64,000 bases of DNA. It comes from Candidatus Bathyarchaeota archaeon. GTDB taxonomy: Archaea > Thermoproteota > Bathyarchaeia > Bathyarchaeales > Bathycorpusculaceae. Positions 1,631 through 16,903 of this stretch are shown here, piece by piece. Each line of letters starts with the position of its first letter. The stretch's first letter is position 1. The position numbers were made by a program, and so were the translations under genes. The notes under the pieces were generated by a model that was not told where the DNA came from, did not search any database, and saw only the letters and a list, made by a program, of their open reading frames with translations. The stretch is taken from contig CAWHXY010000004.1 in assembly GCA_963833575.1 (NCBI GenBank), forward strand, positions 320,001-384,000. Direction: 5' to 3'.

Positions 1631-4261
1631 ATGAGCCAATGGCACACGAAAGAAACACAAGAGCTAATTCATGAACTAGGTGTTAACCCTGAAAGAGGCT
1701 TAGCTGATCAGGAGGCAGCACAGCGGCTAAACAAATACGGTAAAAACGTGTTAGTTAAGCCGAGAGAAATACGGTTTTTTAGTATTTTTAAAGAAGAAGT
1801 AACTGAACCCATGATACTGCTCCTAATCGCGATAGGAGTAATCTATGCTTATTTAGGAATTACAACTGGCAACGGGTTAACGGATGCCTTGACAATTATA
1901 GTTATAATTATTGTGTTGGTTTTTGCGGAAGTTTGGAACGAGTATAGAGCCAAACGTTCAATCGCCTCCCTTAAAAAACTGGCGCCTCCAACAGCGCTGG
2001 TTCTCAGAAATGGGCAACCCAAAGAAATCCAAACAGCCAATCTTGTTCCAGGCGACATTCTTATCCTGAAAACTGGGCAAAGGGTACCTGCTGACGCCCG
2101 ATTGATTGAAGCATTCGGTTTAGAAGTTAACGAGTCCTCTCTCACTGGCGAATCTTATCCGGTAAACAAAGATGCAGCGGCAACACTGCCAGCTGAAACC
2201 AAAATCACTGATCAGTCAAACATGCTGTTCACTGGCACCGTTATTACCAGAGGCAGAGCCAAAGCAGTTATTGTTGCTACAGGCGTGCAAAGTGAACTTG
2301 GAAAAATCGCAGGCATAACAATCGCCGCAAAAGAACCAAAAACTACGTTGCAACTTGCGATGAAGCAACTTTCCAAAACTTTAGTATGGATTGCACTTTT
2401 CTTCAGCATCCTAATCCCTATCTTAAGTTATGTCAGAGGCATCCAACCGAACCCAGGACAAGCATTACTTTATGGATTATCCTTAGCCTTTGTTGTTATA
2501 CCCGAAGAGCTACCAATCATCATTACGATGGTTTTAGGCGTCGGAAGCTATGCACTCTCACGCAAAGGCGCCATTGTGAAACGTTTACGAGCCGCAGAAG
2601 CCCTTGGAAACGTAACAGTCATAGCCACAGACAAAACAGGCACCATAACAGAAAACAAAATGCGGCTAGAACACCTCTACTTCGACGGCTCAATTCACAA
2701 AAGCCAAGACTTCAAAGAAAATGAAAAAGCAGCATTAAAAACCGCGTTCTTAGCCAGCGACACAGTTGGAAACGTGGTAAGTGGCGTAGTTTTGGGCAAT
2801 CCCATGGCGCAAGCAACCTTGGAACGGTTGAGGCAAGATGGAGTCGATGCTCAAAGTGTTTCTAAAGGCTGGGTTCTGAAAGATGAGTTAAGCTTTGATG
2901 TTAAAAGAAAAATGGCATCATACATCTACCAATATGGCAACTCTACAGTTGTTTTATCAAGTGGTGCGCCAGAGAAAATTTTAGCTAACTCTACAAAAAT
3001 CTTGCTGAAAGGCGAAGAAGCCCCCCTCGATGATGCCCTCAGAAGTGAAGCCAGTGAAGCTATGGCGCAGATGGCTCAGTCTGGTGAACGCCTACTCGGC
3101 TTTGGCTACCATAGGCTACAATCTGTCTCAGGGGACGATAGGCAAAATTTTGAAAGCGACATTGTTTTCGTCGGCATCTTGGGATTTATTGATCCCCCAC
3201 GAAAAGAGGTCAAGGGAGCCATCCAAACATGCCAAGAAGCAGGCATAAAAGTCATAATGATTACAGGTGATCACCCAGAAACCGCCAAAGCCATCGCAGC
3301 CCAAGTCGGAATAGATAGCACCTACGTATTAACTGGAAACGAAATCGCAAAAATGACCGACGAAGACCTCAAGAAAGCATTAAAGAACACTTTTGTTTTT
3401 GCACGAGTCACGCCTGAAGACAAACTGCGGCTAGTTCATCTGCTAAAAGAAAACAGCGAAATCGTAGCTGTCACAGGTGACGGAATCAATGATGCCCCAG
3501 CCCTCAAAGAAGCCCACATTGGCATAGCAATGGGCATCCGCGGAACCGACGTTGCCAAAGAAACCGCAGACATGATACTAACTAACGACAATTTCGCAAC
3601 CATCCAAGTTGCCGTGAAAGAAGGAAGAAAACTATTCAGCAACCTACGCAAAGGCGTCCGATACTACTTAGCCTGCAAAGTAGCGCTGGTTTCAATTTTC
3701 CTTGTCCCCATCATTCTGGGAATTCCGTTGCCTTTTGCTCCAATCCAGATTATAGTGTTGGAGTTATTCATGGATTTGGCTGCATCCGCCACTTTTGTTG
3801 CAGAACCCGAAGAAGCAGGCATAATGAATAAGCCGCCGAATGATCCGAAAGAGAAATTCCTAAACCAACGCATGATAAAAACCCTCATTTTAGGTGCTTT
3901 AAGCCTCTTCCTAGCAGTCACCATAACTTTTCTGTTTGCCTGGTACACAACTCACAGCATACCTTTTGCAAGGACAGTGGCGTTTGCGACATGGATGTTT
4001 GGCCACATCTTCCTTGCGCTTAACTTCCGATCTGACAAAGAACCCTTAGTAAGAGAGGGCTTGCTTTCAAACAAGGTTATGCTCCTTTGGGCGCTGCTCG
4101 TGTTTGTAGTTTTGCTCGTAGGCACATCACTTCCAGCTACGCAGACAGCTTTGCAGATCGCGAGTTTAAACCTGCAAGATTGGGTGCTGGTTATTGCTGT
4201 AGCCTTTGCGGCAACGTTCTGGATGGAACTTAAGAAAATCCTGAGGAAAAACCCTGATTGA
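1631..4261 (+). CDS. Cation-transporting P-type ATPase (type II-like)
   Basis: DKTGT phosphorylation motif, TGES, MITGD, GDGINDAPAL, multiple TM segments. Confidence 0.95.
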   Translation: MSQWHTKETQELIHELGVNPERGLADQEAAQRLNKYGKNVLVKPREIRFFSIFKEEVTEPMILLLIAIGVIYAYLGITTGNGLTDALTIIVIIIVLVFAEVWNEYRAKRSIASLKKLAPPTALVLRNGQPKEIQTANLVPGDILILKTGQRVPADARLIEAFGLEVNESSLTGESYPVNKDAAATLPAETKITDQSNMLFTGTVITRGRAKAVIVATGVQSELGKIAGITIAAKEPKTTLQLAMKQLSKTLVWIALFFSILIPILSYVRGIQPNPGQALLYGLSLAFVVIPEELPIIITMVLGVGSYALSRKGAIVKRLRAAEALGNVTVIATDKTGTITENKMRLEHLYFDGSIHKSQDFKENEKAALKTAFLASDTVGNVVSGVVLGNPMAQATLERLRQDGVDAQSVSKGWVLKDELSFDVKRKMASYIYQYGNSTVVLSSGAPEKILANSTKILLKGEEAPLDDALRSEASEAMAQMAQSGERLLGFGYHRLQSVSGDDRQNFESDIVFVGILGFIDPPRKEVKGAIQTCQEAGIKVIMITGDHPETAKAIAAQVGIDSTYVLTGNEIAKMTDEDLKKALKNTFVFARVTPEDKLRLVHLLKENSEIVAVTGDGINDAPALKEAHIGIAMGIRGTDVAKETADMILTNDNFATIQVAVKEGRKLFSNLRKGVRYYLACKVALVSIFLVPIILGIPLPFAPIQIIVLELFMDLAASATFVAEPEEAGIMNKPPNDPKEKFLNQRMIKTLILGALSLFLAVTITFLFAWYTTHSIPFARTVAFATWMFGHIFLALNFRSDKEPLVREGLLSNKVMLLWALLVFVVLLVGTSLPATQTALQIASLNLQDWVLVIAVAFAATFWMELKKILRKNPD

Positions 4262-4415
4262 GACTATCTTATGGGATTCTTTCCTAAATGAAAAGGTAGA
4301 CGTTTCTGTTCTTTAATAATATAGGATAATTTCACGGCAACATTAGTGCTTAAGATTTGTGCTTCATAACGGTTAAGTTATTTTCCACGTAGAATATGCA
4401 TTGGCTTGACAGAAG

Positions 4416-5606
4416 ATGACTAGTCTTCACAAACTCGGAATTTTTGTTGTTTTCCTTGCGCTGATACTTCTTTCTTCCTGCATTTGTGGTGCTTACGCTC
4501 AAAACAATACCAATAGCACTCAAAATAACCAAACTCAAAGTCCAACTGAGACAGGTCAGGTTCCTGCGCCTTCAATAGAAAGCAATCCTGTGAGGCCAGG
4601 CGAAACAGGTTTCGGAATTACAGTAATTAGTGGAGATTTTAATTCCAACTGGTATGCAGTCAGAGGTGACGGTTCCTCAGGTAACAACTTGGAGGGCTTA
4701 TACTCTAACATTCAATACGATATTGGCAACAGTCAAATGTGCTTTGAGACACAACTGGCCTCTAGTAACGATGGTGGTTCGGGAAACTTTGGAGTTGGAC
4801 AACCAAATGCTACCAGCTCATATGCAATTTCTATTGACTGTGATGGCGCAATTATTCCGATAAATCTCTACAATTGTGCCTACTTCAACGAGTCAAGAAC
4901 TAACGTTATCTATGTTGGGGATCTTCCTGAATTTAATAACACTTTTACATTTCATAATGTTTCGCTTGACACTTACGGTCATGGTTCTTCAACCGTTACA
5001 ATATCGTTAACTCAGCAGTTTATCGCTAACTGGACTGAAATGACAGTTAAAATGGATACTGACGTAGATTTTTCCAATATGCAACTGTATTCTCCAATCA
5101 CTCAGCAACCGATTAGTGCTGGAACCCCATTTTCCCTAACACTAATTTACACTGTCGACATGTCAAACTATACAGCTTCACAAGAACTCGGCCACGCAGT
5201 TAACTTTCAACCCACAGTAACCCCAACACAAATCTATTATACTGGCGACAATGGTTTTGGCTACCAGTATGAAATGGCTAATATGAACTTTGGTGATTCA
5301 TACACTGAGGTTCAAGGAAACAATCAAATTCCCAACCAAACACCAGAAACCTACTTCCAGTCCCAGAGGCCGGGAGTTCAAGGAGCTGGAGCTTCATTCG
5401 TTTTATGTTTCCAAACGTTCAATGGCTTAACCTATGGTTTAACTACTGGCTTAAACAGCGACCCAACACTGACGATTCCTCATAAACCCGTTCAGTCCAC
5501 GAATCAAATCCTATTTGTTCTAATATTATTTGCAGTTGTTGCTGTGACAGCAATTTTAGGCGTGGCGCTCTTGGTTCGGCATCGACGGCACCCTATTCAA
5601 CCTTAA
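4416..5606 (+). CDS. Secreted, C-terminally membrane-anchored hypothetical protein
   Basis: Signal peptide, Asn/Thr/Ser-rich body, C-terminal TM helix followed by basic RHRRH. Confidence 0.8.
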   Translation: MTSLHKLGIFVVFLALILLSSCICGAYAQNNTNSTQNNQTQSPTETGQVPAPSIESNPVRPGETGFGITVISGDFNSNWYAVRGDGSSGNNLEGLYSNIQYDIGNSQMCFETQLASSNDGGSGNFGVGQPNATSSYAISIDCDGAIIPINLYNCAYFNESRTNVIYVGDLPEFNNTFTFHNVSLDTYGHGSSTVTISLTQQFIANWTEMTVKMDTDVDFSNMQLYSPITQQPISAGTPFSLTLIYTVDMSNYTASQELGHAVNFQPTVTPTQIYYTGDNGFGYQYEMANMNFGDSYTEVQGNNQIPNQTPETYFQSQRPGVQGAGASFVLCFQTFNGLTYGLTTGLNSDPTLTIPHKPVQSTNQILFVLILFAVVAVTAILGVALLVRHRRHPIQP

Positions 5607-5963
5607 ATGCCCTCTCGATAACGGGGCCAATTGCCTCGCGATTAAATCGGTCTTACCAAGTAAATTTAGTTAGCATTCAAGTGGGTTGGTAGGTCTTCTT
5701 TCCAAATATTTTGCTAAAGTAACTGTTTTTTGCTTGCGTTTCAGCTTTCACAAAAGAAGTCTCTCTGATAGACCAACAACACTTCTTTTTGTATTTTTGT
5801 TCATTGTGTTTTGAGTTTGGGTTTGGTATTAAAATCTAATCCAACCAACATAAAAGAAGGCAACCTATCCTTGAAAAGTTATAGGTGGCAACATTAGGTT
5901 ACTAATTTCTAAAAAATAATAAGGTGTTCACTCGATTCAGGTTACAAGTATCACATAATGTTA

Positions 5964-5987
5964 AGACTAAATTTTAATGCACACCCC
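5964..5987. repeat. Quasi-palindromic module-boundary site S1
   Basis: GACT-AAATTTT-AATGCACACCCC (core 5969-5975); same motif at 7091, 14181, 14529, 15526, 16404. Confidence 0.75.
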
Positions 5988-6016
5988 ATTTATGGAGTTA
6001 AAAATACGATAAGCTG

Positions 6017-6895
6017 TCAAAGTGAGAAGCCCTGTGTCATCGAAGAAACGCCCATAGTACAATTAACTAATATGCTACCGTAAACGCCTTCTCCATACCC
6101 CGTGAAAGTCTCCCAATAGATGGTCACGATGTATCTTTGTTGATTTGGCAAAGAGATGCTGTAAGTTCCTTGCTTTTGCAAAGCATAACTGTAATGTATA
6201 CCAACCGTGAATGTTGACGCAGTACCGGTTGGGCTTGATGCCACAAACTGAATCTGGGTTATCCAAGTATCATTGCTGGAGATATCTTCGACTGTGCCAG
6301 AAACTTGAATTTGAGGGGTTAAGACTGTTAATGTATAGGCGCTGGAGTATGTTTTGCCATTAGCTGCTGTCGATTTGATATCTATTTGATAGATTCCCGC
6401 AGGTGTTGCTGCCAAAGCATTGATTACAAGAATGCTAGTGAATGTGTTATTGCTCGATGGCGTTCCTGATTGTTTGAAGAAAGAGCAGAGAATGCTATTT
6501 GGCTCGGCTACAGCGTTTAAAGTGACAGCTTGGGCAGAGCCCTGCAGGCAGGTTATGTTGATGTTGGTTTGAATGCTGTTTCCTTGCTGGATAGTCCCGT
6601 TGTTTGGATAGACACCAATGTTGTAGTCAAAGGGAATGTATGGAGGTGACGTAACATCTGGAGCCAGAGAAGATTCATGGATTGGCAAAGTCCTTTGTAA
6701 GTATATACCCGCAATCACAGTTATGATTAATATGCCTATTATAGCACTGGCAATTGCTATTTTTCCAGTTTTGTTAAAGTTTTTTGGATTGTGAGCTTGG
6801 ATTTCATTAAGTTTCTTTATTGCGTTGCATAATTTCAAGTCAATTTTGCCGAAACTATGGAAGACTGTTTTTGTTTTCATCAGGCTTTCTATCAA
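6017..6895 (-). CDS. Membrane-anchored hypothetical protein with beta-rich (Ig-like) extracellular domains
   Basis: 292-aa ORF, N-terminal TM helix, TPAGIYQIDI...YTLTV pattern; true start probably downstream of the annotated one. Confidence 0.7.
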   Translation of the reverse strand: MIESLMKTKTVFHSFGKIDLKLCNAIKKLNEIQAHNPKNFNKTGKIAIASAIIGILIITVIAGIYLQRTLPIHESSLAPDVTSPPYIPFDYNIGVYPNNGTIQQGNSIQTNINITCLQGSAQAVTLNAVAEPNSILCSFFKQSGTPSSNNTFTSILVINALAATPAGIYQIDIKSTAANGKTYSSAYTLTVLTPQIQVSGTVEDISSNDTWITQIQFVASSPTGTASTFTVGIHYSYALQKQGTYSISLPNQQRYIVTIYWETFTGYGEGVYGSILVNCTMGVSSMTQGFSL

Positions 6896-7084
6896 AGAGG
6901 TAAAGTGGAGCGGCTTTTAGTTCTATTCTTGGAACATGCTGTTCCCACTCTGGAACAACTCTTGAAATGTACGTCTTAGCCTTAATACCTACATTATTTT
7001 CCTATTGAGCGTGAGTGAAACCTCTTTGGTTACGCTTTAAATTTGATCGCTGAAAAACTTAATCTGCGAACGTAAAAAATAATT

Positions 7085-7105
7085 GTGTGTACTAAATTTT
7101 AATGC
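7085..7105. repeat. Boundary site S2
   Basis: GTGTGTACT-AAATTTT-AATGC (core 7094-7100). Confidence 0.75.
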
Positions 7106-7220
7106 TAGAAAGCCCTAGAATAAGCATTTAACTTTTTTACCTAAACATCATATTTGATTGTAAAGAGAGAGGGTTGAGATACCGATTAAATATTTTGAAG
7201 CGCCTGAAATCAAAAAGCAA
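7094..7220 (+). pseudogene. Decayed duplicate of the promoter and first ~14 codons of the metallopeptidase gene at 16493
   Basis: Aligns along its length with 16406-16534 (e.g. CCGATTAAATATTTTGAAGCGCCTGAAAT identical). ATG changed to ATA, then the frame ends at AGG TAA. Confidence 0.85.
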
Positions 7221-7388
7221 AGGTAAAGATATGACATCAAATTTGGTGTTAGCACAAAAACGCGAACTGATAGAATAAAGAAGCAAATTGACTGACACGC
7301 ATGTAGAGAGAGTTAGTCAAGAAACCTTGACTAATTTTAGTTAAGAGACTTTTACGAATACCCTTTTATCGTAACCCATTTCTAACCA

Positions 7389-10043
7389 ATGTATATGGGT
7401 AATATCAGCAAGAGTTTGGCTTTGTTGCTTACTATAATCTTCTTAACATCTCTAGTTACACTTAGTTCGCATGTTCCACTAATGCCCTTAGTCAAAGGAC
7501 AAAATACTTGGAGCACCCAGACTGTAGCGACTGGCGGATCTTTTGGACCCATCTATATTGCTCTTGACTCGGATAATAATCCACACATCGCCTACAGTGG
7601 AGCAAATGGGTTGCTGTATTATGCTAGTTGGGACGGGTCAAAATGGAACATACAAAGCATCGTTCAAGGAGGCACTCCCAACCAGCTTCTATTAGACACG
7701 CATAACAATCCATATGTCCTCTATAAAGGGTCAAACGGCGTAACCTATTATGCGACTTGGAATGGGCTAAGCTGGGTTTTTCAGGCTGTACCTGAAGGCT
7801 ACGGATACTCTTTTGCCTTGGATTCAACAGGCACCCTACACGTAGCTTATGCGATGCAATTATTAGTTAGTGATTATCCTCAAGGAGTCACCAATGACAT
7901 TGCAATGTTAAAATATGCAAGTTGGACAGGATCAAACTGGATCATCCAAACCATAGACTCACCAATTAGCTACACTGACAGCATTTATCTTGCCTTTGAC
8001 CAACAAGATAACCCACACATAATGTATGGATATGACACTTATTATCCACCGAGCGGCGGTTATATTTCAACAGTTAAGTTTGCAGTTTGGAACGGTTCTA
8101 ATTGGAGTATCCAAACAGCCCTCTCTAATTTGGATTTCTTTGGAAACATGGTTTTAGATTCCAGCGGCGACACACATTTCATTTATGCAATTCACTATCC
8201 GCATGAAACAACTATCAATGCTACGTTGGGATATGCCATTTGGGATGGGGCAATATTGCGTACCCAACCCGTCATTTCGAATGCTGCTTTAGGCATGTTT
8301 GTAGGAGCGAACCTCGTTTTAGACGCTAATAATAATCCACACATCGAATTCTTCAATAGCTCAATAATGTACGCGAGCTTAACGGGCACAAACTGGAATA
8401 TCCAAACCGTTGCACCAAACAACTTTGCATATGGAGAGGGACCCCTGGCGTTGGACTCCAAGAATAACCCGTTTATCTGCTACTGGGTAGATGACATACG
8501 TAACACCACCGCTTTTGTGAGCCAATTACTCATTACCTCACCCACACTCCCGCATAATACTCAAAAGACGAATCCTTCGCCTACAAACCCTAATTCTCCA
8601 CCACCCATTTCAGCCTCTGCTTCCAAACTATGGAACTTCAAACCTGCTTACAGTGAAATCCTTTCTCCCGTTGTCGTAAATGGCTTCATTTATTTTTTGT
8701 CTGGAGACAGTGCATCATCCCCATTAGTCTTGTATTGCCTTGACGCTTCAACTGGCGCTCAAGTTTGGAATCATGCTGGATACCTTAATGGATTCACAGT
8801 TGCCAACGGCTACGTCTATGTTGGCGGCGCTTCTCAAGGGTCTTCTTTCTCTATGCAGGGAGTCATTTCCTGCCTGAATGCCAATAGTGGTGTTCAACTA
8901 TGGAATTATTCCGATGGTACAAGCTTTTCAACTCCTGTAGTTAACGGCGGCATAGTCTATGCTGGCGGATTCGGCTACACCCTATCCACAGGTGTAAACA
9001 TCGGCTTCATCTATGCTTTTAATTCATCAACGGGAGATAAACTGTGGAGTTTCTTAGGTCCAAAAAGTACCCGTTTTGATTCCCAAACCCTTGTTGTGGA
9101 AAACACAAACTTATACGCAATGAGCGCAGCCTACTCAGAACAAGACGCTTCATGGCAAAGCGGCATTTACGCATTCAATGCTTACACAAGTGAAAAACTA
9201 TGGAACTACACATCCCCAGGCCAATTTAGTTCCTTTGTAGCATCCGACCAAAACATATACGTTAGCTCCAATTTTGTGGACACCAGAAATTACATCGATG
9301 CTGAAAAGTCAGGCGGCTACGTTTACGAAGGCGGTGTCCTCGCATTAAATGCACAAAGTGGAACAAGAATCTGGAATTACTCAATCAACAATTCTGTGGG
9401 AATACCTGTTATTACAAATAATATGATTTATGTGGCTTCTGGCGACGGGGTCGTTTACTCTTTTAATGTAACAGACGGCTATGTGATTTGGAATTACACT
9501 TCTGGGACAGGCCTGGGTTCTCTTTTGTCAGCGAACAATTACCTTTATGTGGGTTCCTCCTCAGGCATCTACTGTTTCGACGAAGAGAGTGGCAAAGTTG
9601 TTTGGAATTTTGCAACCAGCGATTTCACTGGTTCTTCAGGCACTAATCCGACATTTGCTGACGGCATAATTTACTTGGGATGGAACGGACCCATGTTTTT
9701 CTCGCCTACAACTCAGCACAACTTTTACGCTCTTGATGCATGGACAGGGCAAAAACTTTGGAACTATACGCTGGGATATACGATATGGTCCTCTCCTGTA
9801 GTTGTAGGTGACATCGTTTACATAGGCTGCAATTTTGTAAGTACCAAAAGCCCAGATTATGAGAGCCCAGGTGCTGTTTATGCCCTCAAATCAAGCGTTG
9901 ACTCTTTACCGTTGGCTTCCCCTTCATCATCCCCAACATCAACACCCATAATCCCAGAGACAATACTTCTGTTATTTGTTATTGCAATAGTTACTATTGC
10001 CGGTTTAGTGGTTTACTTCAAGAAATACAAGGTTAAACATTGA
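7389..10043 (+). CDS. Cell-surface protein with N-terminal propeller-type repeats and PQQ-like beta-propeller, PEF-CTERM-like anchor
   Basis: Repeats ALDSxNNPHIAY/YAxWxGxxW, then PQQ-like repeats (YALDAWTGQKLWNY), IIPET + TM + KKYK. Confidence 0.85.
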   Translation: MYMGNISKSLALLLTIIFLTSLVTLSSHVPLMPLVKGQNTWSTQTVATGGSFGPIYIALDSDNNPHIAYSGANGLLYYASWDGSKWNIQSIVQGGTPNQLLLDTHNNPYVLYKGSNGVTYYATWNGLSWVFQAVPEGYGYSFALDSTGTLHVAYAMQLLVSDYPQGVTNDIAMLKYASWTGSNWIIQTIDSPISYTDSIYLAFDQQDNPHIMYGYDTYYPPSGGYISTVKFAVWNGSNWSIQTALSNLDFFGNMVLDSSGDTHFIYAIHYPHETTINATLGYAIWDGAILRTQPVISNAALGMFVGANLVLDANNNPHIEFFNSSIMYASLTGTNWNIQTVAPNNFAYGEGPLALDSKNNPFICYWVDDIRNTTAFVSQLLITSPTLPHNTQKTNPSPTNPNSPPPISASASKLWNFKPAYSEILSPVVVNGFIYFLSGDSASSPLVLYCLDASTGAQVWNHAGYLNGFTVANGYVYVGGASQGSSFSMQGVISCLNANSGVQLWNYSDGTSFSTPVVNGGIVYAGGFGYTLSTGVNIGFIYAFNSSTGDKLWSFLGPKSTRFDSQTLVVENTNLYAMSAAYSEQDASWQSGIYAFNAYTSEKLWNYTSPGQFSSFVASDQNIYVSSNFVDTRNYIDAEKSGGYVYEGGVLALNAQSGTRIWNYSINNSVGIPVITNNMIYVASGDGVVYSFNVTDGYVIWNYTSGTGLGSLLSANNYLYVGSSSGIYCFDEESGKVVWNFATSDFTGSSGTNPTFADGIIYLGWNGPMFFSPTTQHNFYALDAWTGQKLWNYTLGYTIWSSPVVVGDIVYIGCNFVSTKSPDYESPGAVYALKSSVDSLPLASPSSSPTSTPIIPETILLLFVIAIVTIAGLVVYFKKYKVKH

Positions 10044-10259
10044 CTATTATTTTTCTTTATTTTGGATGTTAAACGTGCGTGTTCACATGCAAACGCGTAC
10101 TCTGTGAGCGCGAAAGTTAGACCCTGAGTCTTCTAAACAAGAAAAGGTACCTCAGCTAATTGTATCAAGCGCACATAGTGCTTATGTTGCGTATGTGTGT
10201 GTTGGCGAAACGATTATACGCTTTCGAGTTGTTGACGCTGGGTTCATAAATCTCTTGTC

Positions 10260-10883
10260 TCACAGCGTTTTTATCAGCGTTTCTATGTTGAAAAATGTGT
10301 TGGCACAACCGTTCTTTAGCAACGGAACAGATTGCCAAGGCATGCCCACACCACTCAACCATTCACCAGACATAAGCACTTCTGCACCGCATGCAACGCC
10401 CACAACACCCTCGTACTTCTTCTGCTTCAAAATATTAGGCATACAAGAACCCCCAGATAAAACGTAAACGTCGTACCCTTTTTCTCTAGCAATGCGTTCT
10501 GCCTTGTTGACACAACAATCAGGTGAGCAATGAGCACAAACGTAAGAGGGCAAGCTCGGCTCGAAAACTGCTTGGCATTGACTATCCATGTATTTTCTAC
10601 AGCAGTGAGGAAGGAAAAGAGCCCTTTTTTTAGTCTGCAGAAATTCCTGTCTCTCCACCAAATTCAAAGTTTGCATATGAAGGAAGTCTCTAATTAGTTC
10701 CACGGAATCTTGGATGTTAAGTCCAGTAATTTCCTGAATTCTGAATTTTCTGATTAAAACCATTAACATCCGTGAGGTTTTTGAGAAAACCTTGTCCATA
10801 CCCGTTTGGTTGGCGATGATGGCGAGTTCTATGAAAAAGTGTTGCGGAGCCTTCGAAATGTCGAAAGTAAACTTGTAGGGCAT
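10260..10883 (-). CDS. DUF116 domain protein
   Basis: LFLPHCCR..C...CAHC..C, YVLSGGS, GVVGVAC, VPLLKNGC motifs. Confidence 0.85.
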   Translation of the reverse strand: MPYKFTFDISKAPQHFFIELAIIANQTGMDKVFSKTSRMLMVLIRKFRIQEITGLNIQDSVELIRDFLHMQTLNLVERQEFLQTKKRALFLPHCCRKYMDSQCQAVFEPSLPSYVCAHCSPDCCVNKAERIAREKGYDVYVLSGGSCMPNILKQKKYEGVVGVACGAEVLMSGEWLSGVGMPWQSVPLLKNGCANTFFNIETLIKTL

Positions 10884-11284
10884 AACTCAAAATAAACAAA
10901 GGGGCCAAACTTAAAAAGAGTATCTTGCCACGGCCAGATGGATTTGAAGTTTTGCTTTGTCGCATGCCTAAATCTCATATTCATAATGCCATTTTCTTGA
11001 GTGACTTCAGTCCCCACAGGAATAGAAAGAGGGGCTACTGGTGCTGACTAAAATAATAATAACAATAGTTAGGTATTGGTATGAGGAGTAAGAAACATAG
11101 TAAAACTTACCCCCTGCTAATTAAACAAAATAATGTTATTAGGGGTAAAAAATAATAGAAAAATTACCCCTCACAAAAACCAATCTAAAGGTAAAACCGA
11201 AACTAAGGGAAATGTCTTTGTTGTTTAATCGCTTTATAGGGAGGGTTGCTCAGTATAAGCGGTAGCGTTATGATTAAATGGTGA

Positions 11285-11578
11285 TTGTATATGTCGGAAA
11301 AATCAAAAATTGTTTTCGTTGGAAATAAAATGCCGATGGATTATGTTATGGCAATTATGACAGGCTTGTCGGCGAATGATTCTAAAGAAATAACTTTGAA
11401 AGCGAGAGGAAAGGCAATAACTACAGCCGTTGACGCAGCCGAAATAGTGAGAAATCGCTTCCTAAAAGACCTGAAAGTACACAAAATCGCGATAGGAACA
11501 GAAGAGATGCCGGCGAGAGAGGGCGAAACCAGAACACGGATGGTTTCAACAATTGAAATAATGCTTACAAAAGCTTAG
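11285..11578 (+). CDS. albA: DNA/RNA-binding protein Alba
   Basis: VFVGNK..MDYV, LKARGKAITTAVDAAE, IGTEE, VSTIEI. Start may be the ATG at 11291. Confidence 0.95.
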   Translation: MYMSEKSKIVFVGNKMPMDYVMAIMTGLSANDSKEITLKARGKAITTAVDAAEIVRNRFLKDLKVHKIAIGTEEMPAREGETRTRMVSTIEIMLTKA

Positions 11579-11691
11579 AATATTTTGCGAAACACACGCT
11601 AAGTAAAACAAAAAGGACGGCATGTTTTGGTCTTCTGCAGTCTGATTGAAAATCACGTTGCAGAACCAAGACAAAATGCTTTCTCAGCTTT

Positions 11692-11901
11692 TTACATATT
11701 TGGGCTATTCTCTGACTTCTCTTTAAACTTCTTTTGCTTTAATTCCTTTCTTTTGACTTTGGCTCCATATCTTTTCCTAACGTAAATTGCCCTACAACTA
11801 TTGGCATGGTACATTTTTTTTGGATCATACGTTTTGAATACAATGCCGCAGGGGCAGGTTACACTGAGAACTTTACTGCTTAGTCTTTCGAAGTTTTCCA
11901 T
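11692..11901 (-). CDS. Small basic putative Zn-binding protein
   Basis: CPCG...YHANSC plus Lys-rich tail; upstream GAGTGA SD-like sequence. Confidence 0.6.
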   Translation of the reverse strand: MENFERLSSKVLSVTCPCGIVFKTYDPKKMYHANSCRAIYVRKRYGAKVKRKELKQKKFKEKSENSPNM

Positions 11902-12267
11902 ATCACTCTACCCAACAATTTTTACATTCAAGGAACTTGAGAAGAACCGTATCCACAGCATTATACTCAATGATTAAAGATAATAAGTCCTTCTTTTCCT
12001 CTTCAGCACTCCATAGATGCCCTAAAGACTAATTGTTCTAAAGTTACTCTTTTCTTTTTCAATCTTTCCACGCTTCTATTAGGTAGACAAGGCAACGCGA
12101 AAATGGCTCTTTGTAAGGCTATATTTTCTTGTACTGTTATCCCTATATACTCCGCAATGCTATAGCATAGACTTGTCAGAATTTTTTAAGAAGAAGAATA
12201 CAAGCCTATTCCAAGTTACTTTGTTTTCTCAAGACAGTTCTGACAAAAAATATGGAAGAAAATAACT

Positions 12268-12909
12268 TTGAACCATAAAAAACCAATCATAATCGAGCAC
12301 CTCGCCTATATTTCAGTGAAGCACCACGTTTACCTTTCAGAGCTCTATCAGGCTTTAGTTTCGGCAAGAGAAAGTGGAAAATCTACCTGTGAGACTTTAA
12401 CAATCAAGTACCGCGGAAACAAAACCGACCAAGCTATCTTTCTTATCACAAAAAGCAATATCGTCATAGCGCAGTTCCGAGTTGAGGAAGAATTTCTGCT
12501 TAGAAAGAACATAAGTTTTGAGAGCTGGCTGGATACTGACAAAATACGCAGACAAATAACTAAACAAAACCTCAGACTTGATTCGATGTTAATTCAAAAC
12601 TTGCGATACGGAATGAAGAAGGTTAATCTAACGGCGGAAGTTTTGGAAACCGAAAAAACCCACCTAATACACACCCAGTACGGAAACAGCGTCATGCTGA
12701 CTGGGGTCTGGATAGGTGATGAAACTGGAAAAGTCAAGCTTAGTCTCTGGGGCGAACAAGCAAACTTGCCAGTCATAGGTGACATAGTGCAAATCAAGCA
12801 TGCATCAGTACGAACTTTCAGGGGAGAACAACTTCTGAGTTTGGGAAAATTCGGTTCATTCAGCATTCTACGCTCGTTAATTGTTGATAATAGTAATGTG
12901 ACCGCATAA
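12268..12909 (+). CDS. OB-fold single-stranded DNA-binding (SSB/RPA-like) protein with N-terminal extension
   Basis: C-terminal KVNLTAEVLE...IGDETGKVKLSLWG...GDIVQIKHA..FRGEQLLSLGKFG is a crenarchaeal SSB-type OB fold. Confidence 0.85.
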   Translation: MNHKKPIIIEHLAYISVKHHVYLSELYQALVSARESGKSTCETLTIKYRGNKTDQAIFLITKSNIVIAQFRVEEEFLLRKNISFESWLDTDKIRRQITKQNLRLDSMLIQNLRYGMKKVNLTAEVLETEKTHLIHTQYGNSVMLTGVWIGDETGKVKLSLWGEQANLPVIGDIVQIKHASVRTFRGEQLLSLGKFGSFSILRSLIVDNSNVTA

Positions 12910-13890
12910 AAGCTCTCCAATCTCTTTTAGAATTAGTGTCACTATCTAAGAGTGAAGAAGGAATTTTACACTTAACCCTGTCATCGGTCAAGCAATAAGA
13001 AAACTCCGACAAAAAGAGAAAACAGAAGGTTTAGAAAAATGAATTGGAGATTAATTAAAGTGAATTTATTCGCATGTCGGTTCTATTTGTTAAGAGAAAT
13101 TTCACATTTTAAGCATCAATTGCCAAGTTTTCAGATATTTTAGCAAGTTTGGTTTGCTTCTAAGTGCAATTGAAAGCAGTAGCCATTTTTCTTCATCGGA
13201 AAGAGCCCATAATTCAATAACTGACTCCAAAATTTCCTCAGTTATTATTATTCTTTCCGTATTAATTGAGATTTTTCTAGCGCGCCGCGCCCTCCTGAGT
13301 CGAAATGTCCTTTCAACCGATAGGAAGACTTAAAGAAAACAAGCTAACAATACGCATACAGAGCGGAAGAACTTGGAAAAACACAGCGACGACTTATTTA
13401 CTTTTACCTTTTTCGGTTTTGGTGAAAATATATGAAAGATTTTAAATGTCCAATATGTGGTGGACCAACTGAAAAGGTTTGGGAAAATGAAACTAAAACA
13501 AGATACGGAATGAAATGTAGAGATGGTCATAAAAACACCAATACCAAATCGGGTGGTTCACAAGAATACTCCGTGTTTCTTGTTTCAAGTGAAGAACTGG
13601 AATAGTTAGAGTTACTTGTCGAAGAGTCCCGTAGACACAGAGAGCTCAGTAATAAAACAGCAGATACACAAGCGAAAATGTGTCCACTTCTTAATGAAAT
13701 GCAGAACTCTGACGCTGGCAAAAGACATGATTAAGGGCGTATTTAATCCTCTGCTCCTCTCTGCGAAATGCACGAAACCGAAAACTGCTTATACACTACC
13801 CCCTCAGATAAGGATTAAAGGAAACAATGTTTCCATACACGATAAGAAATCAAATTTTTCGAATCAAAAAACTTTAGAGGTAGAAAAGAA

Positions 13891-14040
13891 ATGACAACAA
13901 AAAAATCTAAAAAAAATCGCTTACCACCCAAAACAGACTCCAAACATAGACCCAAAGAGACCCAAAAGAAAAATCAAAACACCAACAAAAGAATTGAGAC
14001 ATTTTTACCCATTTCAAATGAAGAGATGCCCAAAGACTAA
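13891..14040 (+). CDS. Possible small basic protein (49 aa)
   Basis: Manual translation MTTKKSKKNRLPPKTDSKHRPKETQKKNQNTNKRIETFLPISNEEMPKD*; GAGGT upstream. Below the ORF-track cutoff. Confidence 0.35.
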   Translation: MTTKKSKKNRLPPKTDSKHRPKETQKKNQNTNKRIETFLPISNEEMPKD

Positions 14041-14171
14041 CTAACCATGGTAAATAATTGGTGTGCCCTTTTCCCTTAACAGATATGTAAGCTCTGAGTA
14101 TATTCTCTTTTAGGTCTGCTGAGCAGATTCTACTGAGTGTCTAATACTGTACAGTTCCCCAGTAGTAGAAA

Positions 14172-14196
14172 GGGGTGTTCACTAAAATTTAATGCA
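14172..14196. repeat. Boundary site S3 (core reads as the reverse complement)
   Basis: GGGGTGTTCACT-AAAATTT-AATGCA (core 14184-14190). Confidence 0.75.
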
Positions 14197-14208
14197 GGGG
14201 CTTGCAGC

Positions 14209-14427
14209 TTAGAGTCCAAGGTGGTCGTGTAGGGTCTTCTGGCTTATGTCCGTCCACTCATGACCGCAGCTTTTGCACTTGAAAGTTACCCTAAAATTCT
14301 CGATACGTTCCCGCTTGTAGCCGCCCCTGTATCCAGGCTCCATAACCTCATATGGGTTTTCGAGCTGCTCACGTTTTACCTCTTTCGCCTGGAACAACCG
14401 ACCGCATGACGGGCATCTTTTGAACAT
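14209..14427 (-). CDS. Small Zn-ribbon protein
   Basis: CPSCG ... CKSCGHEW; sole gene between S3 and S4. Confidence 0.75.
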   Translation of the reverse strand: MFKRCPSCGRLFQAKEVKREQLENPYEVMEPGYRGGYKRERIENFRVTFKCKSCGHEWTDISQKTLHDHLGL

Positions 14428-14520
14428 GATTCCAGCTTCAATCAGGTATTGGAATTTTATGTCTTAAATGTTTGCCCCGCAATGTACGTTGTAATCGGGC
14501 ATGAAAGCCTTCCAAAATCA

Positions 14521-14550
14521 GTGTGTGTGCATTAAATTTTAATCTTTTTC
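14521..14550. repeat. Boundary site S4
   Basis: GTGTGTGTGCATT-AAATTTT-AATCTTTTTC (core 14534-14540). Confidence 0.75.
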
Positions 14551-14670
14551 CCCTCTGCTTCTAACTAACTCCTACTTACTACTTCTCTTTACTATTACTC
14601 TCTACTCTTTCTCCTTATTTACACACAAGACAGACAAACAAAAAATCAAAAAAGAAAAGAAGATGTTTAG

Positions 14671-15177
14671 CTAAGGTTTCTTGGTGTGCCGCTTTTTTGC
14701 TGCCAATTCAATCGTGCAAAGGGTCACTGCCACTGCTGCAGCCGCAACTAAAATGAGCGCTGCACTGCTGAACTCAGGTACTGTCGGAGTAGAAGTTGCA
14801 GAAGTTGTCGGGCTAACGGAAGCAGATGCAGTTGGGCTTGATGACGCAGACGTAGTTTTAACGTACACGTTTCCTGTTTGAACTGCGGTGAAACCGTTGT
14901 TTGTGATTGTGAAATAATCGTCTTGAGTTATGCCTAGTACGCTATATATGCCTTCGAAAGTGGTTGAGTTGGTTATAGCCCAAGTGCCAGAATGGTTACT
15001 AAATAGTCCTGTGCCATTTTCATAAAGAATTATAGTGTATCCTGTTCCGCTTGAAGTTTGTTCCGCATACGTACCAGCCATACTTGACATAGTAGGTGTT
15101 GCACTTGCGTTGGCTGCTGACAAAGCAAAAATCGCGATGAGCATTAAACCTAGTAGCTTCCAAACTTTGACTTTCAT
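14671..15177 (-). CDS. Small secreted protein with PEF-CTERM sorting signal
   Basis: Signal peptide, S/T/P linker, VPEF + hydrophobic helix + KKRH. Confidence 0.85.
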   Translation of the reverse strand: MKVKVWKLLGLMLIAIFALSAANASATPTMSSMAGTYAEQTSSGTGYTIILYENGTGLFSNHSGTWAITNSTTFEGIYSVLGITQDDYFTITNNGFTAVQTGNVYVKTTSASSSPTASASVSPTTSATSTPTVPEFSSAALILVAAAAVAVTLCTIELAAKKRHTKKP

Positions 15178-15520
15178 GTTTATCCCTTAATGTTTCTTCG
15201 GTAGCACGCTATTGATACGTGCCCTAACTGGCTTAGTTTGTTTCAATAAACATAAAAAACTTTGCTATAAAAGCCTGAAGTAGCCTTATTGCGCGGTAAG
15301 TTAAACTAAATGAAAAGAAGTAGCGAATTGCTTAATATTTTAGACTTTAAACCATGCTTTCTTTCTTCGTTAACCGTCTTTGTTGTGAAAAAACAGAGCC
15401 CCTGCTTGTGAGGGGGTGCCCTTTAGGGTGATGTTCCTCACTAAGCGAGGTGTTTTTGCTTCACTATTTCAGCATGTGTGTTTGTCTTTGTCTGTCTGAC
15501 TTGTGTGTGCTAAAGGAGAG

Positions 15521-15544
15521 AGAAAAAGATTAAATTTTAATCTT
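15521..15544. repeat. Boundary site S5
   Basis: AAGATT-AAATTTT-AATCTT with perfect inverted arms (core 15532-15538). Confidence 0.75.
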
Positions 15545-15558
15545 GGAGGTTCTACGCA

Positions 15559-15604
15559 GGAACCTATAGAGGGCCTATCCTCGCAGGTTCCGTTTTTTCG
15601 TTTT
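15559..15604 (+). terminator. GC-rich hairpin followed by T tract
   Basis: GGAACCT..GAGG/CCTC..AGGTTCC stem, then TTTTTTCGTTTT. Confidence 0.45.
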
Positions 15605-15653
15605 CTCTTCAGATAAGCTTTTACTTTGAAAATAAAAGCAAGTAATTGTAACT

Positions 15654-16205
15654 TTAGTTTAGTCCTTTAATGTTTGTGTCTTTAAGGTTAAATTCTATAT
15701 GGTAGGTTTGATTTTCAAAAATTGTCGTATAAATAATTCTAACGGGCCACAGAAGAACTTTATCTATGTAATATGTAGCGTTAATAGCTTGGTTGGTGTA
15801 ATCGTAGACTATGCAATCTCGGCTTCCTAAGCTTCTGACGGTTATTTTCGTATTATAGGTTCTTGCAAGTGTCATACCTTTAGGCTGAAAGTTGATGTTT
15901 GTTTTATTGACCCACAAAGTAGTTTGGTCGGATAATGTTGGCGCAAAAGATGTGGCAATTGATGAGTTTGTCTTGATTTGCACGTGGGTGGCGTTTAAGT
16001 CAGTAATTTGTATCGTTTCGTTTACGCTACTTGGTATAGAAATGGAGTCTATTTGGCCTTCATATGTTGCATATGCCCCTTTAAACATCCAAGACTCAGC
16101 CATGCTGTGCTGGGAATTATCCATAAGTTGGATTCCAATAATCAAAACTAATGATGAAATGGCTAAAACGATAGCGAACCCAACAATTATCCAACCTTTT
16201 CCCAT
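15654..16205 (-). CDS. Membrane-anchored hypothetical protein
   Basis: N-terminal TM helix; WMFKGAYATY...YYIDKVLLWP...LKDTNI pattern seen in archaeal surface proteins. Confidence 0.75.
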   Translation of the reverse strand: MGKGWIIVGFAIVLAISSLVLIIGIQLMDNSQHSMAESWMFKGAYATYEGQIDSISIPSSVNETIQITDLNATHVQIKTNSSIATSFAPTLSDQTTLWVNKTNINFQPKGMTLARTYNTKITVRSLGSRDCIVYDYTNQAINATYYIDKVLLWPVRIIYTTIFENQTYHIEFNLKDTNIKGLN

Positions 16206-16401
16206 ACTTAGCTAAGGAATGAATTGCGTTAAAAGGGTTATCACGTTTAACAATTTTCCCTCTCCTTTAAGGATATGTCCAGAAACCTCAGCAAACCATT
16301 TTATTTTTTAGGTTAAACCAAAATTGGCAATATGGTGAATAGTCAAAATCAACCGTTAAATTAACCCACGATAAGACCCTTTCAAACGCGAGACAAATCA
16401 T

Positions 16402-16418
16402 GGTAAAATTTTAATGCC
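16402..16418. repeat. Boundary site S6 (putative chromosomal attachment site)
   Basis: GGTA-AAATTTT-AATGCC (core 16406-16412), immediately upstream of the metallopeptidase promoter. Confidence 0.7.
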
Positions 16419-16492
16419 AGAAATCCCTTGAATATGCGCTTAACTTTTTAACCTTAACGACATATTTGCATGTGAAAGAGAGAGGGTTTGGC

Positions 16493-16903
16493 ATGCCGAT
16501 TAAATATTTTGAAGCGCCTGAAATTAAAAAACAAGTAGACCAGCTGGCTGAAGAATGCGAGTTCTACCACGTTGTACCCCAATTCGTTTACTGCATACGC
16601 AGCAGAGGTTCTAAAGCCAGACGCACTATTGCCCGCATTCATGGTTTAGGCAAAGTTTGGCAAGGCGTTCTGAACATGCCGGCGTCGTACACGATTGAAG
16701 TTATCTCGGAAGTTTATGACAGGATGTCACCTGAAGATAAAGAAAGAACATTGATTCATGAACTGATGCATATCCCAGGAGGATTTTCAGGAGGCTTTCG
16801 CCCGCACAAAGGATATGTGGAAAGAAAAAATGTCGAAGCAGTTTACAAGAAGCTTCAGAGTGATAGGGCTGCAAAAAAACAGAAACCGCTTTTTTTCGGG
16901 TAA
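16493..16903 (+). CDS. Putative metallopeptidase (HEXXH)
   Basis: RSRGSKA.RTIARIHGL..VWQ, YTIEVISE.YD, LIHELMHIP. Start moved to the ATG at 16493 after a GAGGG SD. Confidence 0.85.
   Translation: MPIKYFEAPEIKKQVDQLAEECEFYHVVPQFVYCIRSRGSKARRTIARIHGLGKVWQGVLNMPASYTIEVISEVYDRMSPEDKERTLIHELMHIPGGFSGGFRPHKGYVERKNVEAVYKKLQSDRAAKKQKPLFFG

Follow-up and report, generated by a model that had tools for sequence, protein, structure and literature searches.

A 13-bp palindrome between the gene modules of a Bathyarchaeia island, the putative target-site duplication of Cas1-solo elements

How do genes come to be lined up between copies of a conserved palindromic site, in the manner of an integron, at a chromosomal locus without an integrase? 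The question is raised by a 64,000-nt stretch of a Candidatus Bathyarchaeota genome (GenBank assembly GCA_963833575.1, contig CAWHXY010000004.1, positions 320,001 to 384,000), referred to here as the window and numbered from its first base. A first-pass annotation, made from the sequence letters alone, had described six copies of a quasi-palindrome that partition part of the window into gene modules, and had proposed a cassette platform at which a tyrosine recombinase acts around a 6-8 bp overlap. In the present study we find that the module boundaries lie at a 13-bp palindrome (hereafter the 13-mer). Sequence comparison across the genus indicates that the 13-mer is the target-site duplication (TSD) of Cas1-solo elements (casposons) of Bathyarchaeia, and that the "arms" around it are element ends. 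We put a probability of about 0.75 on the island that holds the sites being a pile of casposon-derived, Cas1-less and other modules built by serial insertion at 13-mer targets, and we infer that serial casposase insertion, and not other recombination, was the builder of this particular array.

The palindrome and its genomic setting

All six sites of the first-pass annotation were recovered at their positions, every one between open reading frames (ORFs). They are S1 (5966-5978) and S2 (7091-7103), both ACTAAATTTTAAT; S3 (14181-14193), ACTAAAATTTAAT; S4 (14531-14543) and S5 (15529-15541), both ATTAAATTTTAAT; and S6 (16403-16415), GTAAAATTTTAAT, which has two mismatches and tips on neither side. 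The consensus originally given, GCATT-AAATTTT-AATGC, had to be replaced: searched as GCATT-N7-AATGC with at most one mismatch it fits none of the six sites, and its five matches elsewhere compare with 3.5 expected. The repeat unit is the AT palindrome AYTAAAWTTTART, G/T-rich and C-poor on its 5' side with the mirror image on its 3' side, for which the window holds seven matches with at most one mismatch versus 1.39 expected, a number reached by 0 of 100 shuffles. Two copies were added to the six: a seventh site, S0 (5828-5840; ATTAAAATCTAAT, one mismatch), flanked by GGGTTT and CCAA tips, and a disrupted site, Sx (13730-13747), with half-sites ATTAA and TTTAAT separated by seven extra bases. 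One of the window matches with at most one mismatch (1545-1557) falls outside the island.

A genome-wide scan, which the first-pass annotation had put forward as a check, found the motif to be rare, intergenic and clustered. The source genome (2.75 Mb, eight contigs) has 15 exact copies, of which 13 are intergenic (P=1.6e-9, for an ORF share of the genome of ~85% under a crude gene model) and five fall within this 10.6-kb stretch (Poisson P=5e-9). A looser scan gives ~22 family members, clustered on contigs C4, C6 and C7. The left arms of the cores are simple repeats, (GT)n-GC, (GA)n-AG, (GGTT)n or (GGGTTT)n, mirrored by the right arms. Pooling 113 exact sites from the source genome and the fetched loci (226 half-flanks), we found G at -1 in 74% and a purine at -2 in 94% of half-flanks, and no more than a single C among the 10 bases adjoining the core in 86%, versus 36% of random positions. 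Conservation outside the 13-mer is limited to -1 (G) and -2 (R), the arms being several unrelated simple repeats; there are no conserved 9-13-bp binding arms around a 6-8-bp overlap of the dif/pdif kind.

Homology between site-bearing loci stops exactly at the core. This is seen between C4 112490-113121 and C7 538631-538001 (87% identity), and again left of S2, where a 190-nt block (6916-7105) shares 77% identity with the DNA to the right of C6 331696, beside the right 13-mer of a casposon described below. These breaks are among several observations that make it very improbable that the motif is an ordinary regulatory signal, that is, a bidirectional B-recognition-element (BRE)/TATA promoter, a terminator or a transcription-factor operator. 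Such a signal would suit an AT-rich, TATA-like palindrome with 13 of 15 copies intergenic and several lying 20-50 nt beyond a stop codon. Against it, the spacing from start codons runs from ~40 to >350 nt, and a genome of the genus may have anywhere between 0 and 33 copies (81 genomes compared), a number that tracks Cas1. Relatives, furthermore, keep the promoter of the metallopeptidase gene at the island's right border without a 13-mer. The operator at a fixed promoter distance that the annotation had named as an alternative was not seen; a promoter reading of S6 itself was ruled out, since the TATA box of the metallopeptidase gene, CTTAACTTTTTAACC, is a distinct sequence ~35 nt downstream of S6, conserved in relatives that have no 13-mer there. 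As a separate observation, a conserved element of 50-60 nt (an A-run followed by a GTGTTCACTCGATTCAGGT-like stretch) lies at most ~100 nt from 13-mers at three loci of the source genome (window 5906-5965; C7 534998-535057; C4 ~215230-215290).

Cas1 elements and the 13-mer

The source genome carries a 10-kb element on contig C6 (321669-331708; 5669-15708 of locus L024) with 287-nt inverted ends of 99.65% identity and, at both outer ends, an identical direct ATTAAATTTTAAT. This casposon, apparently recent, holds the only full Cas1 gene of the genome (C6:324424-325395; PF01867, E=5e-38; TIGR00287, 135 bits against a cut-off of 71.7), and no Cas2 (PF09827) was found in the source genome, which is 94% complete. 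Matches of the Cas1 protein in the PDB are weak (7cr6, 1.8e-10; the M. mazei casposase 6opm, 2.8e-10). The element also contains ~15 ORFs without a Pfam match, one of them with a HELAH-type metallopeptidase-like motif, and a 201-aa ORF with a DVDD motif reminiscent of primase-polymerases. Two C-terminal Cas1 fragments, at C4:205443-205772 and C6:333146-333385 (both interrupted by a stop codon; identity with the intact gene 84% and 74%, respectively), are decayed casposons, one of which lies just outside the intact C6 element.

Cas1 homologues, full or fragmentary, occur in 30 of the 81 genomes of the genus. The first three elements fetched from relatives have one architecture (13-mer, inverted repeat, Cas1, inverted repeat, 13-mer), with GA, GGGTTT or A-run tips. 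When one genome per species was searched with six aligned Cas1 proteins, 79 loci emerged, all but a few in records titled Candidatus Bathyarchaeota or Bathyarchaeia, in agreement with the lineage assumed in the first-pass annotation; 20 loci with partial Cas1 were dropped and 59 examined. Records titled Methanophagales, Candidatus Levybacteria and Candidatus Sulfotelmatobacter hold loci L098, L099 and L123, which could be mis-binned contigs or transfers. Seventeen of the 59 loci have Cas1 between two 13-mers, identical at 12-13 of 13 positions and directly adjoining inverted tips that match at 17-40 of 40 positions; among the Cas1 elements, inverted repeats of up to 305 nt were seen. Asymmetric variants of the site, namely ACTAAATTTTGAT, ATTAAATTTTTAT, ATTAAAAGTTTAT, ACAAAAATTTAAT and GTTAAATTTTAAC, are duplicated exactly and in direct orientation, and the direct repeat, measured in 18 elements, spans 13-24 bp, never less than 13 and exactly 13 in three (L055, L073, L101). 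Idiosyncratic, identical direct repeats beside inverted ends are the signature of a TSD; their direct orientation means that the 13-mer is not part of the inverted repeat.

The genomes of the genus hold between zero and 33 13-mers each, 452 in all versus 127 for a reversed control pattern. The mean is 10.3 in the 30 genomes with a Cas1 match and 2.8 in the 51 without (Mann-Whitney p=3e-7, a value that ignores kinship and so overstates the significance), while the control pattern is flat (1.53 versus 1.59). Four intact Cas1 homologues measure 344-352 aa and a fifth ORF, as called, 371 aa. The elements show no sign of a polymerase. In five of them, 3.9-12.6 kb long, ORFs do not exceed 362 aa, and Pfam gave no polymerase match for 20 ORFs from four elements, a search that distant or split polymerases could escape. 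At E<=1e-5 a protein search with Cas1 gave 1798 relatives; within the 120 best listed, those that have a name bear no other than 'Cas1'. These data point to a large casposon family in Bathyarchaeia.

Two side observations concern the limits of these elements. Their ends are telomere-like, consisting of (CA)n, (CT)n, (CTT)n, (CCAA)n, (CCCAAA)n, C14 or CA10 (window S0-S5; loci L030-L053 and L055-L127), with C always adjoining the 13-mer and G nearly absent, a composition that could stem from casposase end requirements or from slippage in end replication. In addition, a sister group of Cas1 elements (L063, L066, L080, L124) is bounded by a different near-palindromic 13-mer, GATAAAACTTTAC-like, which suggests target switching within the Cas1 element family.

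The association of the site with Cas1 bears directly on the chemistry proposed in the first-pass annotation, in which the palindrome is the core site of a tyrosine recombinase (integron-, dif- or pdif-like), exchange takes place in the central overlap and cassettes move as circles. That part of the annotation does not hold up against 18 Cas1 elements in which direct 13-mers (12-13 of 13 identical, asymmetric variants included) adjoin terminal inverted repeats (TIRs), and we consider it improbable. Site-bounded elements carry Cas1 and long TIRs; the whole asymmetric 13-mer is identical on both sides of an insert, as in a target duplication, which argues against hybrid attL/attR recombinase products; and the arms, as several unrelated simple repeats, are not conserved as binding elements. 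The palindromic half-sites, the single-gene modules between sites, the mix-and-match combinations of arm types around one core and the presence of five tyrosine recombinase (PF00589) genes in the source genome would fit a recombinase of this kind, yet none of the five lies in the island or near any site cluster, and the only one on the island's contig is ~316 kb from the window start. The island ORFs have no PF00589 match, and the junctions consist of the 13-bp palindrome and simple-repeat arms; on direct inspection, made without an attC model, no attC-like imperfect hairpins of 60-140 nt were found at them. The annotation's remark that neither integrase nor attC is in view at the array is upheld, as is its view that the enzyme is supplied in trans: there is no recombinase inside the island, so any enzyme must act from elsewhere. 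Independently of the array, tyrosine recombinase genes stand at most 5 kb from three contig starts (C1, 827-1237; C2, 778-1311; C4, 4201-4719), which suggests a repeated integrative element breaking the assembly there.

The island, its modules and their assembly

The surroundings of the sites were compared with those in 11 relatives. In five of these a gene of 876 aa (window 1631-4261) ends 48-54 nt ahead of the metallopeptidase gene, in two a 1.2-kb gene lies between the two, and in four the 876-aa gene is absent within 20 kb; the corresponding place is free of a 13-mer in all 11. Because relatives hold both flanking genes ~50 nt apart without a 13-mer, window 4262-16402 is an island, inserted between the 876-aa gene and the metallopeptidase/topoisomerase IB genes. 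The native right flank (16416-16903, plus strand) comprises the remnant of the upstream gene's end, the TATA box and the PhageMetallopep gene itself (16493-16903). With homology blocks that end at the 13-mer, breakpoints that fall at the sites on comparison with relatives, and relatives that lack the whole island, the claim that mobile modules accreted at one chromosomal spot stands. Scanning the island for tRNA genes and against Rfam (E<=1) gave nothing relevant, the one sub-threshold snoRNA match lying inside the gene of module A, and a tRNA-targeting integrative element was ruled out on this ground.

The inserts between the 13-mers of the window measure 125-7077 nt, and the four single-gene modules, A, C, D and E, are all on the minus strand, as annotated. 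Two modules have direct 13-mers together with matching tips. Module A (5979-7090, minus strand), whose one gene (6017-6895, minus strand) encodes a 292-aa protein that starts with a membrane segment, ends on either side in a short (CA)n-type tip; its bounding sites S1 and S2 are identical in direct orientation (13 of 13) and match at 10 of 13 positions when inverted, an asymmetric C at position 2 being common to both. Module D (14544-15528, minus strand) likewise lies between identical direct 13-mers (S4 and S5, 13 of 13), has TIRs at ~14544-14661 and 15475-15528, and encodes a surface protein (14671-15177, minus strand) whose C-terminal motif we take to be of the PEF-CTERM type. The ends of module D are 80-90% identical to both ends of L127, an autonomous Cas1 element, and a 91% copy of the module, beginning at a 13-mer, is present in genome G084; module D is a Cas1-less mini-casposon.

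Between S3 and S4, module C (14194-14530, 337 nt, minus strand) has one zinc-ribbon gene (14209-14427, minus strand) and a (GT)n tip at its right end only. In relative G044 a single 13-mer joins module X directly to a D-type end, in place of the order X, S3, C, S4, D of the window. The difference is either an insertion of module C with target duplication or a deletion between 13-mer copies, and the breakpoint is at the site either way. Module X (13748-14180) is a unit of ~340-440 nt with sharp ends, multi-copy across the genus, and in seven of ten copies from relatives the boundary equivalent to Sx is occupied by a 13-mer with 0-2 mismatches. No convincing ORF and no Rfam match were found in module X; a non-autonomous miniature element and a gene for a small RNA are both conceivable. 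Its part 13748-14080 recurs as a ~340-nt unit, 81-90% identical and often in several copies, in ~30 of the 81 genus genomes (copies in loci L133-L142).

Block B (7221-13729) is composite, and its sub-blocks recur in other 13-mer-rich loci; in genome G013 a 13-mer adjoins the equivalent of window position 11032, within the block. Pfam assigns to block B a PQQ/beta-propeller protein (7389-10043, plus strand), a DUF116 protein (10260-10883, minus strand), an Alba protein (11285-11578, plus strand) and an OB-fold protein (12268-12909, plus strand). The Alba paralogue, an additional chromatin protein (Pfam E=1e-15), has four more copies on the same contig, 71-84% identical (C4 110576-110857, 292699-292989, 705074-705355 and 977781-978065). 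To the right of S5, module E (15542-16402, minus strand) has one membrane-protein gene (15654-16205, minus strand) and is without terminal repeats; eight or more further genomes have its homologue as an ordinary gene, and one of the eight copies compared has a 13-mer at the S5-equivalent position. The leftmost segment of the island (4262-5827) has a right end of the (GGGTTT) type and is absent from relatives. It encodes a 396-aa protein (4416-5606, plus strand) with a signal-like N-terminal and a C-terminal membrane segment, for which no Pfam or NCBIfam match was found.

A 129-nt direct repeat, 85% identical (7094-7220 versus 16406-16534), begins inside S2 and S6. Its left copy, F' (7094-7220, plus strand), is a decayed second copy of the chromosomal flank. 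It comprises the 3'-terminal ~24 nt of the 876-aa gene, followed by the promoter, the 5' untranslated region and the first 14 codons, without the ATG, of the metallopeptidase gene. The repeat could have come from Campbell-type integration of a circle with flank, or from an aberrant insertion with the second strand transfer ~140 bp off. The extra sequence that the first-pass annotation saw at the module ends of S1, S3 and S4 was verified and consists of inverted repeats, and the inverted ends around S1-S3 measure 23 nt (87%). More than one order of insertions fits; an element S1-S3 with its 23-nt, 87% inverted ends, for instance, competes with the 129-nt duplication of S2/S6. S6 is probably the site nearest to the original chromosomal target.

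By analogy with the casposases studied so far, the array would arise as follows. The casposase would recognise a two-fold symmetric target, AYTAAAWTTTART preceded by R-G and followed by C-Y, and join the 3' ends of a linear element to both ends of the 13 bp on opposite strands, after which gap repair would leave one 13-mer on each side of the insert. Tips of the (CA)n, (CT)n, (CCAA)n or (CCCAAA)n type begin with C and end with G, so each insertion would rebuild two good targets, and further insertions could come to lie side by side. The pile at 4262-16402 would then comprise the Cas1-less derivatives A and D and the multi-copy X, in addition to B, C and E, which are without matching ends. The enzyme would be supplied in trans, the only genomic Cas1 being that of the 10-kb C6 casposon. 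A further step is offered only tentatively: besides moving its own element, the casposase would be a general gene-capture enzyme, and the 13-bp palindromic target, restored with every insertion, would receive Cas1-less units as well as DNA that has no terminal repeats, such as module C and perhaps E.

Several observations weigh against assembly by serial insertion. Perfect direct TSDs with matching tips are confined to A and D, modules B, C and E having no matching ends, and no recognisable 13-mer was found at the island's left border. The central base of the 13-mer varies, S0 and S3 having A and the remaining sites T, which simple serial duplication does not predict, and a 129-nt repeat that starts in S2 and S6 is incompatible with a 13-bp staggered cut. 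The Cas1 ORF of the source genome is open, but has ACG where five homologues start with ATG, so the resident protein may be inactive or no longer made. Across the survey, 31 of the 59 Cas1 loci have no 13-mer pair and 11 more have weak pairs only; of the 31, 19 have <3.5 kb of flank on one side and 12 have at least 6.6 kb on both, several of the well-flanked ones being bounded by another 13-mer, such as GATAAAACTTTAC. Contigs from public sequencing runs, which are fragmentary, show no excision or empty-site forms in the parts that they cover.

Some of these points would suit an alternative in which the sites are casposon TSDs, and the array itself was put together by homologous recombination, duplication or the import of ready-made blocks, for example by Campbell-type integration of a circle bearing a 13-mer and the 129-nt metallopeptidase flank. 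The 129-nt direct repeat brackets 7221-16402, island sub-blocks stand in shuffled order at other 13-mer-rich loci of the source genome and its relatives, and module E is an ordinary gene, without 13-mers in seven of eight copies; the varying central base and a possibly inactive Cas1 lean the same way. It is nevertheless unlikely in our estimation, in that a 13-bp repeat is short for homologous recombination, the difference between the C-filled and C-empty arrangements sits at a 13-mer, and A and D have perfect direct 13-bp duplications with matching tips. Serial insertion at 13-mer targets remains the preferred account of the island.

Public sequencing data were also consulted, in the form of contigs only: four runs from three studies matched parts of the window, the best with 0.32 of the sampled words. 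None of these fragmentary contigs spans the array and none gives a well-supported joint; two joints, 5850>11262 and 6943>13742, extend over no more than 23-31 nt on their shorter side (88% similarity) and were not counted. In a metagenome contig of a different study, the match to the window sets in at 15529, the first base of S5, and the contig is unlike the window before that point, which weakly supports a boundary at S5. A search for empty sites in all fetched loci with 200 synthetic junction queries gave self-matches only, which stem from the palindromic flanks.

Recurrence of the arrays and comparison with known systems

Arrays of gene modules between conserved sites are a recurrent structure in the genus. 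Genome G013 has seven sites in 5 kb on one contig (C56) and four sites in 2 kb on another (C20), the latter with one ORF of 117-186 aa per module, and the closed genome G068 has 33 sites, many of them paired 0.8-8 kb apart. The cargo of the modules is diverse; an enrichment in membrane or secreted proteins is not significant (9 of 28 ORF-holding modules versus a genome background of 21.5%, p=0.13).

Casposons are known from few lineages and are thought to be the ancestors of the adaptation module of CRISPR (clustered regularly interspaced short palindromic repeats) systems. A full-text literature search, whose coverage excluded most subscription journals and supplements, returned no description of casposons in Bathyarchaeia. 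The putative family considered here would be set apart from described casposons by the lack of a detected polymerase, by its 13-bp palindromic target and by arrays of target copies that separate single-gene modules. It turns an apparent 'integron without integrase' into an explained structure, provides an annotation rule for many 'hypothetical' islands of these uncultured archaea, and offers a natural system for asking by what route a Cas1 integrase became a builder of repeat arrays. Should the casposase prove to be a gene-capture enzyme, these arrays, in which single-gene cassettes alternate with the repeat, would be the archaeal equivalent of integrons, with Cas1 as the enzyme. They would also show, in organisms alive today, the intermediate that has been postulated to link casposons with CRISPR arrays.

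Integrons, which reportedly occur in Archaea too, separate their cassettes by attC sites, imperfect inverted repeats of 60-140 nt with R and L boxes. The Bathyarchaeia arrays resemble them in having mostly single-gene modules between repeated sites, one chromosomal platform and an enzyme able to act in trans. They differ in that no IntI-type tyrosine recombinase, attI or attC imperfect hairpin was found (no attC model was run), in that the repeat is a duplicated 13-bp target, and in that many modules have their own promoters and TIRs. In CRISPR arrays, Cas1-Cas2 duplicates the leader-proximal repeat. Common to both systems are a Cas1-family integrase and a short, partly palindromic repeat that is doubled with each insertion to give a repeat-insert-repeat order, whereas the Bathyarchaeia repeat is 13 bp long (versus 23-50 bp), the inserts carry genes and span 0.13-7 kb without a uniform spacer length, and there is no Cas2, leader or effector gene. 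The pdif/XerCD-dif modules, which lie between short inverted-repeat sites and depend on a host enzyme in trans, share with the present arrays these bounding sites and the supply in trans; the 11-6-11 layout is not shared, and the direct 13-bp duplications and the association with Cas1 point to transposition-type chemistry.

Among described casposons, tandem integration has been reported in Nitrosopumilus adriaticus (PMC6563490), and a report on Methanosarcina describes a tandem pair of casposons with a common TSD and solo-TIR remnants, a pile-up that its authors compared to Tn7-type island formation (PMC4779613). In Methanosarcina as in Bathyarchaeia, a reused target gives adjacent elements with a common TSD, and decayed remnants outnumber intact elements. 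The Methanosarcina casposons, in contrast, belong to families 2 and 4, with a 14-bp TSD, PolB and two-element arrays, and single-gene Cas1-less modules do not feature in the part of that report available to us.

The closest likeness is to family 1. The casposase of Nitrosopumilus koreensis has the 13-bp TSD ATTGATAAAGAGT, depends on A1, A11 and T13 of this target, with T3 also examined, and is strict on its target while accepting nearly any DNA as insert; it has 347 aa, as opposed to 404-405 aa in family-2 enzymes with an extra helix-turn-helix domain (PMC8464041). Like family 1 casposons, exemplified by N. koreensis AR1, the Bathyarchaeia elements have a Cas1 without Cas2 or CRISPR array, of 344-352 aa (the fifth 371) versus 347 aa, as well as TIRs, sequence-specific insertion and a 13-bp TSD with A1, T3, A11 and T13, the likeness being drawn from these features and from length. 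Tandem reuse of one target, too, is documented in family 1 (PMC6563490). Unlike family 1, no PolB was found in the Bathyarchaeia elements examined, the element ends are simple-sequence repeats, and the target is an intergenic AT palindrome in place of the end of the ef-2 gene. The hosts are Bathyarchaeia, and the arrays extend to seven or eight target copies that mostly separate Cas1-less modules.

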